From IMG/VR virus record IMGVR_UViG_3300045988_001624, positions 1-5,937 of that record: DNA of 5,937 bases; one strand, given 5' to 3'. The position numbers and the translations under genes are program-made. A model generated the notes under the pieces. That model was not told the DNA's origin. It saw nothing but the letters and a program-made list of their open reading frames with translations, and made no database searches. Shown in pieces: positions 274 through 5,937 of this stretch. Source of the DNA: a virus. Every line of letters begins with the position of its first letter. Position 1 is the stretch's first letter.

Positions 274-700
274 AAGATACGAAGAAGGGCGAAAGCCCTT
301 CTTTTCTGAATCAGGCAAAACACAACGAAAACAATACGTTTGGGCAAAAAACAAAGAAGGCAAAGAATATCTGCAGGAAACAGAAAGCATTGACATTCAA
401 GCAGAAATTGAAAGCTATGCAGACGAATGCGATATTAAAAACATTGTACGAAAAGCAAGTTTTGACCCGCAGTTTATGCAGAGCCTTTCACAGGGAGCAT
501 TGGACGGGACAGAGACAGATATCACGGAATGGCCACAGAACATCCACGAGTATCATCGAATGATTGCAACAGCACGAGCAAACGCAATTGCACTGCAGAA
601 GATGCAGAAAGAAGCGCCAAAAGAAACGCCAAAAGAAACGCCAAAAGAAACGCCAAAAGAAACACCAAAGGAAGGAGAGAAGAAGAGTGAATCGGAATAA
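266..700 (+). CDS. VP3: Putative internal scaffolding protein (VP3-like), 144 aa, with a C-terminal (KETP)x5 low-complexity tail.
   Basis: Sits immediately upstream of VP1, as VP3 does in gokushoviruses. The acidic middle region followed by a W-P-x-N...A-rich helix resembles gokushovirus VP3 architecture as I recall it. Start is translationally coupled to the upstream ORF. A 12-nt tandem repeat encodes the PKET repeats. Confidence 0.55.
   Translation: MNKRYEEGRKPFFSESGKTQRKQYVWAKNKEGKEYLQETESIDIQAEIESYADECDIKNIVRKASFDPQFMQSLSQGALDGTETDITEWPQNIHEYHRMIATARANAIALQKMQKEAPKETPKETPKETPKETPKEGEKKSESE
282..308 (+). terminator. Hairpin with a GNRA loop: stem aagaagggc / gcccttctt (9 bp), loop gaaa, followed by a T-rich run. 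It lies 9 nt after the stop of the 79-aa ORF and inside the 5' end of the VP3-like gene. Candidate leaky terminator or mRNA-stabilising structure.
   Basis: Inverted repeat 282-290 / 295-303 read directly from the sequence, followed by ttct. Confidence 0.4.
616..675 (+). repeat. Tandem 12-nt repeat gccaaaagaaac: 4 perfect copies plus 1 degenerate copy, in frame within the VP3-like gene, encoding (P-K-E-T)n.
   Basis: Perfect copies at 616-627, 628-639, 640-651 and 652-663; degenerate copy at 664-675. Confidence 0.9.
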
Positions 701-2400: not shown

Positions 2401-3309
2401 ATGGCGTTTGGAATAGACGACTTCTTGATGTTAGCCGGAGGCATTGGAACGGTAGCAAACACAATAGGAAACGTGGCAAATGCCGCAGGAAACGTAGGAA
2501 GATTATTCGGCGGATGGGGTCAAACAGGCCAGAGCCAGAGCGCGGGCGGAAGCACACAGCAAGGTGGCGGAAGCAGTCAAAGCATGAGCAAATCCGGAAC
2601 GAATGATGAACAGGTGATGCAGTATCTGAAAAATGCATACCAATATCAGACAGCAGAAGGACAAAGACAAAGTCAATTTAATCAACGATCTATGTTGGAA
2701 CAGATGGGTTACAACACACTAGGAGCAATCGCACAAGGCATATACAATCACATCGAAAACGCAGCGGCAATGAACTTCAACTCGACAGAAGCAATGAAAA
2801 ACCGGGAATGGCAAGAATACATGTCAAATACAGCCTATCAGAGGGCAGTTGAAGACATGAAAAAAGCTGGACTTAATCCTATATTAGCATTCCAGAACGG
2901 CGGCGCAAGCACGCCCGGAGGAAGCGCAGGAACGATATCAGGTGCAAGCATGGGAGCGCCATCATCAAGTGCGCTAGGAGTAAGCAGAGCAAGTGGATTC
3001 GTGCCTAACTCTTACTCAAGTGAAAGTTGGTCAAAAAGTGATTGGTACAACGCTGCACAAAGCTGGAATCAAATGTTGAGTTCAACGGGAATGTCACCAT
3101 ATGGCCTAATGAAAGCATTTGAAGGAATCAACAACGGTGTCGATAACGTAATGGACGAAAACGTGCCAAACAACAGAAAATCCGGAAATAACAAGCATGG
3201 AGGTATAACAGCACAAAACTTTGGTGGTACAAAAAAGAACACAGTAACCATGCAAGACAAAACAGGAAGTTACGGACAAAAGAGAAAGCCAGGTGATTAT
3301 TTAAAGTGA
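2401..3309 (+). CDS. VP2: Minor capsid / DNA pilot protein VP2, 302 aa.
   Basis: Gly/Ala/Asn-rich N-terminus (GGIGTVANTIGNVANAAGNVG). Contains the conserved gokushovirus VP2 block NREWQEYMSNTAYQRAVEDMKKAGLNPILAF. Located directly after VP1, as in gokushoviruses. Confidence 0.9.
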   Translation: MAFGIDDFLMLAGGIGTVANTIGNVANAAGNVGRLFGGWGQTGQSQSAGGSTQQGGGSSQSMSKSGTNDEQVMQYLKNAYQYQTAEGQRQSQFNQRSMLEQMGYNTLGAIAQGIYNHIENAAAMNFNSTEAMKNREWQEYMSNTAYQRAVEDMKKAGLNPILAFQNGGASTPGGSAGTISGASMGAPSSSALGVSRASGFVPNSYSSESWSKSDWYNAAQSWNQMLSSTGMSPYGLMKAFEGINNGVDNVMDENVPNNRKSGNNKHGGITAQNFGGTKKNTVTMQDKTGSYGQKRKPGDYLK

Positions 3310-4325
3310 GCTGCTATAAGCCGTTAATACGGATATACAGCCCAGAAAACAGAGAAATTAGCGGGCAAGTGTATTCACTTGCCCGCTATTCTGAAAGAGT
3401 GGGCAAAAAATTAAAATATGAAGATTTAATATATGAACCAAAAGTTATGTTAATACCTTGTGGGCAGTGCATCGGATGCAGAATACAGCAAAGAGAAGAC
3501 TGGACAACAAGAATTGAACTAGAAGCGAGACAATGGCCGAAAGAGCAAGTATGGTTTATCACATTAACATATGATGATGAACACATACCGGGAATGATTC
3601 TTAGTACAGGCGAAATCATGAGAAAAGTGCAGTATGTTTGGAAACCAGGGAAAAAAACACCGGAAAGCGTGCAAACACTACTATACACAGACGTGCAGAA
3701 ATTCTTAAAAAAGCTCAGAAGAGCTTACAAATCAAGATTAAGATTCTTCTGTGCAGGAGAATATGGAGAGCAAACGGCAAGGCCGCATTATCACATGATA
3801 CTATACGGATGGGAACCAACAGACCTGAAACAGCTATACAAAATCCAACACAACGGATACTTTACTTCAGAAACACTTTGTAAAATTTGGGGCAATGGAA
3901 ATGTGCAAATTGCACAAGCAACACCGGAAACATACAGGTATGTTGCCGGATACGTAACGAAAAAAATGTACGAAATTGATGGCAAAAAAGCAAATACTTA
4001 CTATGAGCTAGGGCAACAAAAGCCATTCGCGTGCATGTCACTTAAACCGGGACTAGGAGATGCCTACTATAAAGAGCACAAAGAAGAAATCTGGAGACAA
4101 GGCTACATTCAATGCACCAACGGAAAACAAGCACAGATACCGCGATACTATGAAAAGATGATGGAAAAAGAAAACCCAGAAAGGCTGTGGAGAATCAAGC
4201 AAAATAGGCAAAGAAAAGCAATCGAGCAAAAAAGGCTACAGCTGGAAGGCAAAGACTACAAAACACAATTAGAAACAAAGGAGCGTGTTATCAAAAAACA
4301 AACGAGAAAGCGTGGAATCCTTTAA
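3306..4325 (+). CDS. VP4: Rolling-circle replication initiator VP4 (phiX174 gene A-like HUH endonuclease), 339 aa, with a GTG start overlapping the VP2 stop (GTGA).
   Basis: N-terminal CxxC block (CGQCIGCR). Motif I FITLTYDD, motif II HUH as PHYHMILY (codons at 3786-3794) and motif III YVAGYVTKK (Tyr codons at 3939 and 3951). Motif III is near-identical to phiX174 A protein YVAKYVNKK. SD AGGTGA at 3291-3296, 9 nt upstream of GTG 3306. An in-frame stop at 3294-3296 excludes any upstream start. Confidence 0.92.
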   Translation: MSCYKPLIRIYSPENREISGQVYSLARYSERVGKKLKYEDLIYEPKVMLIPCGQCIGCRIQQREDWTTRIELEARQWPKEQVWFITLTYDDEHIPGMILSTGEIMRKVQYVWKPGKKTPESVQTLLYTDVQKFLKKLRRAYKSRLRFFCAGEYGEQTARPHYHMILYGWEPTDLKQLYKIQHNGYFTSETLCKIWGNGNVQIAQATPETYRYVAGYVTKKMYEIDGKKANTYYELGQQKPFACMSLKPGLGDAYYKEHKEEIWRQGYIQCTNGKQAQIPRYYEKMMEKENPERLWRIKQNRQRKAIEQKRLQLEGKDYKTQLETKERVIKKQTRKRGIL

Positions 4326-4337
4326 TCGGTGTCACTT

Positions 4338-4374
4338 AGCCCAGTACCTATCAAGTAGGGTACTGGGCTTTATT
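4338..4374 (+). terminator. Rho-independent terminator-like hairpin immediately after the VP4 stop: stem AGCCCAGTACC / GGTACTGGGCT (11 bp, extendable to 13), loop tatcaagtag, then tttatt.
   Basis: Inverted repeat 4338-4348 / 4359-4369 followed by a T-tract at 4369-4374. The loop is the reverse complement of ACTTGATA (see findings). Confidence 0.6.
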
Positions 4375-4420
4375 CGCGCGCACACGCGCACGCGTAGACG
4401 CGCGCACACGCGCACGCGTA
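4375..4420. repeat. Two tandem copies of the 22-nt unit cgcgcgcacacgcgcacgcgta (4375-4396 and 4399-4420), separated by ga. Each unit alternates pyrimidine and purine perfectly and is GC-rich, so it is Z-DNA-prone. Each unit contains an MluI-type palindrome acgcgt.
   Basis: Exact 22/22 identity between the two copies, read directly. Strict Y-R alternation across each 22-mer. Confidence 0.9.
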
Positions 4421-4458
4421 TTATTATATAACTTGTTGTAGCCGTAGTAGTAGAGTAA

Positions 4459-4622
4459 GTTGAAAAGTTAAAAACAGATAATTTTGAACGTTAAAACATT
4501 AAAAAAAGATAAAAACAAGCGTTGAAAGATTTGTTGAAAAAATGTTAAAATGTTAAAATACTCTATTGTGCTAAAGTTTAACAATGTGGAAATGTTGAAA
4601 ACTCTGTGGAAAATGTTGAAAA
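4459..4622. repeat. AT-rich iteron-like array with at least 9 copies of a TGTT(G/A)AAA(A) core. It includes a perfect tandem tgttaaaa x2 (4543-4558) and a ~18-nt direct repeat tgtggaaa(a)tgttgaaaa (4585-4601 and 4605-4622). Candidate DNA-unwinding / protein-binding region.
   Basis: Motif occurrences: gttgaaaa 4459-4466, gttaaaaa 4467-4474, gttaaaac 4490-4497, gttgaaag 4521-4528, tgttgaaaa 4532-4540, tgttaaaa 4543-4550 and 4551-4558, tgttgaaaa 4593-4601 and 4614-4622. Confidence 0.7.
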
Positions 4623-4765
4623 GAACGGCAAATAGAGCAGGACAAGTGGCGGCCGCAAAGTCTGACGGACCGCGCCAATATTTGAAGATGTGCGCCTTCG
4701 GGCGGGAGTTCAACGGCGGTCCTATCCTAGGAAAGGTTACAAATTATTACAAAGAAGCAAAATCA

Positions 4766-4794
4766 TTGAAAAAGGTATTGACAAGTAATATAAT
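4766..4794 (+). promoter_or_regulatory. Sigma70-like promoter: -35 TTGAAA (4766-4771), 17-nt spacer, -10 TATAAT (4789-4794). Predicted TSS is near 4801, driving the downstream small-gene block.
   Basis: Consensus hexamers with canonical spacing. First credible ORF starts 23 nt downstream, with a GGTGA SD. Confidence 0.45.
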
Positions 4795-4823
4795 GGAACC
4801 AGAAAGAAAGAACGGTGAAAACC

Positions 4824-5036
4824 ATGAAAACAAAATGGCTTACAAAAAAACAACTGGAATATTTAAAAGTGAACGGCAGAGTATGGGGAAACAAATACTA
4901 TTATGTAAAAGTAGTACATGGAATCGTAAAATACCATGAAATCTATTACAAAACAGAAACAGGAAAAAAGCTCATGACTGATGATTATGCAACATTCAAT
5001 AGTTTATGGAAATACGCAAAGATAAAAGAGGATTGA
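4824..5036 (+). CDS. Hypothetical Tyr/Lys-rich small protein, 70 aa from ATG 4824 (the ORF track shows a GTG at 4815). No transmembrane segment.
   Basis: ATG 4824 is preceded by GGTGA (4814-4818). A-ending codon bias matches the rest of the genome. Stop TGA 5034-5036 sits just before the peptidase RBS/start. Confidence 0.45.
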   Translation: MKTKWLTKKQLEYLKVNGRVWGNKYYYVKVVHGIVKYHEIYYKTETGKKLMTDDYATFNSLWKYAKIKED

Positions 5037-5791: not shown

Positions 5792-5897
5792 AGTAATGCG
5801 CAACGCAAAGGACAAGCGTATGTTCAACGTGACCGCGCGAAAAACGAAAAGTATCAACCTGAGTCAGAAACCAATGCGCGGCGGTATTCGACTGTAA
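5775..5897 (+). CDS. Small highly basic DNA-binding / packaging protein (phiX174 J-like; gokushovirus ORF8-like), 40 aa: MGRHRKVMRNAKDKRMFNVTARKTKSINLSQKPMRGGIRL.
   Basis: 12 of 40 residues are K/R. The C-terminal PMRGGIRL matches the characteristic ending of gokushovirus ORF8-type proteins as I recall them. SD AAGGGG at 5761-5766, 8 nt upstream. Runs across the circular junction (end equals position 15). Confidence 0.7.
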   Translation: MGRHRKVMRNAKDKRMFNVTARKTKSINLSQKPMRGGIRL

Positions 5898-5937
5898 GAA
5901 AAAAGGAGAAAAACAATGGAACACAACTATTATGGCA
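5883..5937. repeat. Second copy of the terminal redundancy (equivalent to 1-55).
   Basis: Exact identity with 1-55. Confidence 0.95.

Follow-up and report, generated by a model that had tools for sequence, protein, structure and literature searches.

Gokushoviruses are the dominant ssDNA phages of the gut and the ocean, and no origin mapping was found for them in the searched literature. In phage phiX174, the gene A protein nicks the site CAACTTG↓ATATTAATAAC, which lies within gene A, on the coding strand and outside any hairpin loop; rep_origin is annotated at 4306. To our knowledge, all characterised Microviridae package the coding strand. The complementary-strand origins of ssDNA phages (phiX174 n'-PAS, G4 oric, and the M13 minus origin) and the sso of rolling-circle plasmids are non-coding, strand-specific, and very stable hairpins. 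Such a stable, SSB-resistant duplex is where the host starts to prime the complementary strand, as in phiX174 PAS, G4 oric, M13, and ssoA. In plasmids of the pMV158/pT181 type, the sso elements sit upstream of the dso. CRESS-DNA nonanucleotide loops and the nic hairpins of pT181 and pMV158 combine a conserved nick motif in the loop with a covarying stem. Hairpins that prime the complementary strand are to be expected in any microvirus (PMC9865509, section 3.8).

The window, that is, the whole stretch of 5,937 nt that was analysed, contains a complete circular genome of the gokushovirus type (Microviridae) of about 5,882 nt (~5.9 kb), whose bases 1-55 recur at 5883-5937. All genes are carried by the given strand, here called plus. 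The closest GenBank relatives are uncultured Microviridae from faeces and blood. Rep (VP4) is the gokushovirus homologue of protein A. The coordinates of the features are collected in Table 1. A 12-nt tandem repeat, AAAGAAACGCCA, is present in 5.5 copies at 608-673 and encodes KETP repeats at the C-terminus of a 144-aa ORF (266-700); this stretch overlaps the start region of VP1.

Table 1. Positions of the genes, the hairpins, the motif, and the repeats in the window and of related elements in other genomes
Feature	Position	Strand	Remarks
VP1	ends 2360	given strand	
VP2	2401-3309	given strand	
Rep/VP4	3306-4325	given strand	
Peptidase M15	ends 5431	given strand	
Nick-like hairpin	4338-4369	minus	11-bp stem 4338-4348 / 4359-4369; loop 4349-4358; candidate Rep nick site
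Linker from nick-like hairpin to wobble hairpin, 5 nt	4370-4374		AATAA(A) on the minus strand with the 4369/4375 context
Wobble hairpin, 3' arm (read on minus) = block 1	4375-4394	minus	plus position i pairs with 8793-i
Wobble hairpin, loop	4395-4398	minus	TCTA on minus, TAGA on plus; sole non-alternating, indel-prone part; 3-10 nt in relatives
Wobble hairpin, 5' arm (read on minus) = block 2	4399-4418	minus	minus-strand RNA fold (MFE) and consensus hairpin
AT-rich linker, hairpin to invariant motif	4421-4428		variable sequence, from the alignment
Motif TAACTTGTTGTAG-NN-GTAGTAGTAG	4429-4453	plus	invariant in 56/56 aligned relatives; second ACTTG element
Repeats GTTGAAAA / GTTAAAA / GTGGAAAA	4459-4622	plus	22-23% GC; form, with the invariant motif, a unit that can be inverted
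Hairpins with TACTTG(A/T)T loop outside the window	L314 2906-2943; L315 3302-3341; L316 514-546		
Module in relatives	L094 2715-2925; L113 2267-2480; L232 284-490		
Beta-proteobacterial 23-nt tract	L003 1386-1526; L234-L313 ~375-490		

The tract under study consists of CGCGCGCACACGCGCACGCGTA at 4375-4396 and again at 4399-4420 with the spacer GA, and each copy is a perfect pyrimidine-purine (Y-R) alternation of 22 nt. Tandem Repeats Finder reported 4375-4420 with a period of 24, 1.9 copies, and a 100% match. A repeat search agreed with this, which confirms the two alternating repeats described in the first-pass annotation. With the flanking bases the alternating runs are 22 and 24 nt long (the second at 4398-4421). 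The tract had also been called unlike the rest of the genome, and the numbers bear this out: the longest alternating run elsewhere is 14 nt, and about 0.003 runs of at least 22 nt are expected by chance in 5.9 kb. As claimed, the tract lies between rep with its adjacent hairpin on the 5' side and the AT-rich repeats on the 3' side. This is the border of an origin-like non-coding module, in agreement with the proposal that the tract marks the structural edge of an origin.

A total of 80 loci were collected from relatives whose Rep proteins are 79-94% identical. Two perfect alternating blocks of 16-28 nt were present in 67 of the 68 distinct relatives, and the same layout was found in more distant GenBank genomes outside this set; L056 has a single block. 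The element occurred in 47 distinct sequence variants among 64 loci, and all differences between them were transitions. In the alignment of 56 sequences, 8 of the 38 block columns were invariant, 30 varied by transitions only, and none had a transversion, whereas transversions appeared in nearly every polymorphic column of the flanks. The presence and copy number in the relatives, together with transition-only variation beside transversion-rich flanks, rule out a recent slippage artefact, which the first-pass annotation had left as a possible outcome of such a comparison. The spacers between the blocks vary (G, A, AA, AAAA, ATA, and others), and the phase between the blocks is not conserved. 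In MG945135 (L231 1023-1120), the hairpin next to rep (with the minus-strand loop CTTCTTGATAG) and the AACTTGTTGTAG module are present without the alternating tract, which, judged from this genome, is dispensable in at least one lineage. A coding role was rejected: a plus-strand ORF at 4285-4431 spans the tract, but spacer indels of 1-6 nt in the relatives break its frame.

The two "repeats" are the arms of one conserved hairpin, about 20 bp long, which is confined to the strand opposite the genes. On the minus strand, an uninterrupted helix of 18-23 pairs was present in all 41 distinct variants, with energies of -17 to -31 kcal/mol (DNA parameters). The RNAalifold consensus reached -39.4 kcal/mol on the minus strand, where 12 of 19 pairs were changed on both sides, compared with -0.83 on the plus strand. 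Shuffles that preserve the Y/R pattern gave a median z of -1.9 (DNA parameters) or -2.5 (RNA parameters) for the minus-strand folding energy, and about -0.2 (DNA) or -0.6 (RNA) for the plus strand. The share of paired cells on the minus strand was 98.8%, compared with 94.9% in shuffles and about 90% when the register was slid. For the plus strand it was 75.2%, so the Watson-Crick arms on both strands that define a perfect palindrome or cruciform were not found. The plus-strand hairpin (-20.7 kcal/mol in the window's own fold) was rejected as a candidate; it is unconserved and without compensation, and RNAalifold gave no consensus for it. The covariance models of Rfam 15 gave no match at E <= 1 on either strand of the window. 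The first-pass annotation thus read the tract correctly as a direct repeat but missed that it is also a disguised inverted repeat, its blocks being self-complementary on the opposite strand with G.T wobble. The strong self-pairing in single-stranded DNA that it proposed is real, but it belongs to the strand complementary to the genes and not to the given strand.

The pair types explain how the tract varies. Over 56 sequences and 20 pairs, the minus strand had 762 G-C, 271 G.T, and 78 A-T pairs and a single A.C, and shuffling the partners within columns gave an expectation of 38.8 +/- 3.7 A.C (minimum 27 in 2000 shuffles). Read on the plus strand, the same pairs are 271 C.A oppositions (25% of pairs mismatched) against one T.G. 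Pair 4385-4408 was found as G-C in 23, G.T in 18, and A-T in 15 sequences, and pair 4375-4418 as C-G in 42 and T-A in 10, with no intermediates. Because the minus strand tolerates G.T and not A.C, only transitions occur and the purine/pyrimidine pattern is frozen. The same substitution appears in both "copies" because a G-to-A change in each arm converts two G.T into two A-T pairs. The neighbouring hairpin of 11-12 bp (Table 1), however, has compensated transversions among the same genomes (C-G to G-C and C-G to A-T), and the tract has none. For this reason, the alternation itself may be under an extra constraint that the wobble-hairpin model leaves unexplained.

The wobble hairpin lies 6 nt 5' of the nick-like hairpin, both on the minus strand. 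The loop of the latter, CTACTTGATA, reads CTACTTG↓ATA on the minus strand, with the putative nick between G4352 and A4351, and matches the phiX174 counterpart CAACTTG↓ATA at 9 of 10 positions across the nick. Unlike the phiX174 site, the candidate is in a hairpin loop, and in the gut clade it belongs to the non-coding strand. The loop TACTTG(A/T)T is also found in intergenic hairpins of Chp2, phiMH2K, and SpV4, whose stems are unrelated to that of the window. Among the relatives, the stems covary freely while the loop stays conserved, and we took the loop as a candidate Rep nick site (double-strand origin) on these grounds. CRESS-DNA nonanucleotide loops and pT181/pMV158 nic hairpins are built in the same way, but the motif here is TACTTG↓AT and the Rep lineage is different; we know of no counterpart of the adjacent 20-bp wobble hairpin among origins of these types. 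Chp2, phiMH2K, SpV4, and L145/L325 carry the loop on the coding strand; the window, KX513877, KT264791, MG945334, and KX513864 carry it on the non-coding strand. The loop is a candidate for a universal gokushovirus nick site whose polarity would be flipped in the gut clade. Read on the plus strand, where it is followed by TTTATT, the nick-like hairpin may serve as the rep terminator as well. In the searched literature, neither motif and no description of a gokushovirus nick site was found. The loop motif, conserved from Chlamydia phage to gut phages, and the adjacent strand-specific hairpin are two candidates that can be tested.

The invariant motif 3' of the tract forms, with the GTTGAAAA-type repeats, a module of about 230 nt that occurs in both orientations to the genes among related genomes; it is inverted in L094, L104, L109, L113, KX513864, and KX513876. 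The motif resembles the hairpin loop of phiMH2K and matches at 100% in KX513864 on the other strand. It is a candidate Rep recognition site or alternative nick site, with TATAACTTGTTGTAG on the plus strand as the rival of CTACTTGATA on the minus strand. If this plus-strand motif were the real nick site, the wobble hairpin would be on the strand that is not packaged. Since each of the two motifs occurs in both orientations to the genes, the packaged polarity would differ among close relatives if either of them nicks. Base skew was considered as a marker of the packaged strand. At four-fold sites on the coding strand of VP1, VP2, and VP4, the composition is extremely A-rich and T-poor (A 45-60%, T 11-15%); phiMH2K is likewise A-rich (A 47%), and Chp2 and SpV4 lean the other way (T 52-65%). 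The skew is not decisive, as A is 45-60% with the standard and the inverted module alike. DnaA boxes in the AT-rich repeats were rejected (1 match, 0.9 expected).

Several other features were seen in this non-coding region. A 14-nt inverted repeat, ATTATATAACTTGT / ACAAGTAATATAAT (13/14 complementary), at 4423-4436 and 4781-4794 flanks the whole AT-rich module, and the -10 box of the best promoter-like site, TTGAAA-N17-TATAAT (4766-4794), shares bases with its second arm. A GC-rich island at 4640-4730, 3' of a promoter-like site at 4522-4551, contains the nested complementary GGACCGC (4667-4673) and GCGGTCC (4714-4720) and a hairpin of the C(TTCG)G type at about 4693-4704. The island may be a structured plus-sense leader or a small RNA.

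The strand of the tract could be compared with that of its neighbours in three independent genome arrangements, and in all three the hairpin-forming (YG)n strand is the strand of the nick loop. In the window clade and in KX513864, this is the non-coding strand; the tract is 5' of the loop hairpin in the former and 3' of it in the latter. In L145/L325, from two metagenomes, both are on the coding strand, with the tract 3' of the nick hairpin in L145. The putative origin cassette flips its polarity among related lineages, being on the coding strand in L145/L325, and the AACTTGTTGTAG module is inverted in others. The tract is independent of this AACTTGTTGTAG/iteron module, as the module is inverted in L094-type genomes and the tract is unmoved. 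The polarity of the tract follows the nick-like hairpin and not transcription or the AT-rich module, which points to a single-stranded function on the strand displaced by Rep.

We believe that the tract is probably an ssDNA origin element and not a Z-DNA element. In its full form, this explanation holds that the hairpin is a folded ssDNA element on the strand that Rep nicks, displaces, and packages, and likely the complementary-strand origin beside the nick-like hairpin; we put its chances at about even. Rep would nick at CTACTTG↓ATA, and the nicked strand would be displaced and circularised. The 20-bp GC-rich hairpin would then fold on the displaced strand next to the origin hairpin, in the window as the last element to be displaced, as is the sso in rolling-circle plasmids. 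Its stable duplex would exclude SSB and most likely mark the point where the host starts complementary-strand synthesis. Alternatively, the hairpin could aid recognition or binding by Rep, or termination, at the origin. The (YG)n composition would make pairing independent of the register, so a tandem duplication would create the hairpin, and slippage would shorten it without destroying it. The single block of L056 could still form a hairpin of 8 bp.

Like the known complementary-strand origins, the window has a strand-specific, stable, non-coding structure, with no conserved fold on the plus strand, and as with an sso it is immediately upstream of the putative nick site. It differs from them in lacking any sequence similarity to ssoA, in its alternating (YG)n sequence, in about 23% G.T pairs, in being on the strand opposite the genes, and in a position relative to the nick hairpin that varies by lineage; a priming role is putative. 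The ssoA motif CS-6 (TAGCGW; TAGCGT/A) was absent from the non-coding region, and its two matches in VP1 are below the chance expectation. The wobble hairpin is therefore not a member of ssoA and could at most be a functional analogue.

Other observations count against a single-strand origin. The plus-strand motif 3' of the tract is a rival nick site. A share of 23% G.T pairs is commoner in RNA helices than in DNA hairpins. Lineages differ in how the tract and the nick hairpin are ordered (tract on the 5' side in the window, on the 3' side in KX513864 and L145), the tract is missing from MG945135, where the nick-like hairpin and the motif are both present, and just three independent arrangements stand behind the polarity link. 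The lack of CS-6 and the compensated transversions of the neighbouring hairpin belong on the same side. The single-strand explanation also implies that the window clade nicks and packages the non-coding strand, contrary to the characterised Microviridae. A large gut gokushovirus clade of "negative-sense" microviruses, with the nick site and the (YG)n origin opposite the genes and the non-coding strand packaged, is a tentative idea that we hold to be clearly less likely than its opposite. On the present analysis, Microviridae may include members that package a strand other than the coding one.

The hairpin could instead act as RNA, a transcript of the non-coding strand folding into the 20-bp helix with its G.U pairs. 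It might then be an insulator or terminator against antisense entry into rep, an RNase III or stability element, or the primer RNA of the complementary strand, which would have the polarity of the hairpin. Tolerance of G.U but not A.C with 23% wobble is classic RNA covariation, and, folded as RNA, 115 nt of the minus strand reach -58.5 kcal/mol (z = -6.6). Throughout the window clade the hairpin is antisense to the genes, but L145/L325 carry the cassette on the coding strand, so its polarity is not tied to transcription. Directly after the helix the minus strand reads AATAAAG with no U-tract, and an intrinsic-terminator scan of 4200-4900 on both strands gave no terminator-like site. No convincing minus-strand promoter lies upstream, the lone match being 9/12 at 4772-4743. 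Transcription from a -10-like box beside the hairpin would begin within the helix, whose outermost pairs nevertheless covary. A minus-strand gene that stops short of the hairpin was rejected, as its ORF (4468-4713) is not conserved in frame or extent. We therefore consider an RNA role unlikely.

The first-pass annotation had called the tract a strong Z-DNA motif. Flipping to Z in the supercoiled replicative form could buffer torsion or form B-Z junctions beside the origin. Unconstrained superhelicity in bacteria is usually quoted as less negative than about -0.038. The proposed propensity calculation was run on the 5,882-bp circle as a two-state model of the Z-Hunt type with published energies, in which B-Z costs rise from CG (0.7) through CA/TG (1.3) to TA (2.5 kcal/mol) (PMC3024258, Table 1). 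In this model, each block needs a sigma of about -0.037 to -0.039 to flip and is the best Z site of the genome; the next best needs -0.048. Purified DNA or DNA under transient stress could reach this level, but it is not clear that the steady state in vivo would. Like the d(CG)/d(CA) tracts of the Z-Hunt/SIBZ class, the element is an uninterrupted, CG- and CA/TG-rich alternation, over 22 and 24 nt in the window. Strict alternation is retained in all tract-bearing relatives, and the tract lacks the compensated transversions of the neighbouring hairpin. An unrelated beta-proteobacterial phage family also keeps an alternating 23-mer at an origin-like palindrome. The Y-R steps (CG 415, CA 190, TA 66, TG 45) agree only partly with the order of the energies.

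These points are outweighed by the asymmetry of the strands. Z-DNA, a cruciform, or a symmetric (dimeric) protein site cannot yield 271 C.A against one T.G, because properties of the duplex treat C.A and T.G as mirror images; the strand-symmetric substitution expected of a duplex constraint was not found. Transition-only change is already predicted by a wobble-tolerant helix, the threshold is only moderate and flipping would depend on transient stress, the blocks keep no fixed phase to each other, and MG945135 has no tract. The tract is the top Z site of its genome, and the claim holds to that extent, but Z-DNA as the main explanation is doubtful, somewhat more so than an RNA role; it may be a secondary property. 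Transition-only alternating tracts can mimic selection for Z-DNA while being wobble-tolerant ssDNA helices, and the asymmetry of C.A and T.G discriminates between the two.

Two further readings are very improbable. Direct-repeat iterons, two identical sites for Rep or a host protein, would agree with the identical copies and shared substitutions in the window and its closest relatives, but the blocks differ from one another in most relatives, 30 of the 38 positions are free to vary, and a self-complementary hairpin would be expected to produce the "concerted" changes. A neutral compound dinucleotide microsatellite or recent slippage duplication without function would fit the one block of L056, the missing tract of MG945135, and the abundance of alternating CR tracts in viral contigs, but the two-block layout is kept across the whole range of Rep identities and beyond, and transversions are absent and A.C oppositions nearly so while the flanks vary freely.

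The exact 22-mer was found in 31 IMG/VR contigs and 17 GTDB genomes, including beta-proteobacterial prophages and Streptomyces. About 20 of the contigs are GC-rich and not from microviruses, and in these it is flanked by a D5-type primase-helicase and a RuvC-like gene. In a degenerate control scan with CGCRCRCRCRCRCRCRCRCGTA, at least 55 of the 256 sibling variants were present in viral contigs, each in 1-5 contexts. Homology or horizontal transfer of the 22-mer was rejected, since sibling variants are equally present and the microvirus and beta-phage families both explore many variants of the tract freely. The identity in unrelated phages is a coincidence that follows from the small sequence space.

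The beta-proteobacterial phage and prophage family (63-66% GC) has a 23-nt alternating tract with 45 variants among 80 loci, again differing by transitions only. Its tract lies at the centre of a long covarying inverted repeat (CTGACGCAGCTGAC...), between the D5-type primase-helicase and the RuvC-like gene. The consensus fold of this element is -29.6 kcal/mol on the sense strand compared with -17.1 on the other. Near-identical intergenic copies (L033-L048, GTDB) occur in Dechloromonas, Propionivibrio, Polynucleobacter, Acidovorax, Thiomonas, and Aquabacterium, and one copy (L048) in a MAG labelled Bifidobacterium. Such a spread over many genera suggests that the host range is very broad, or else that contamination came in through binning or reagents.
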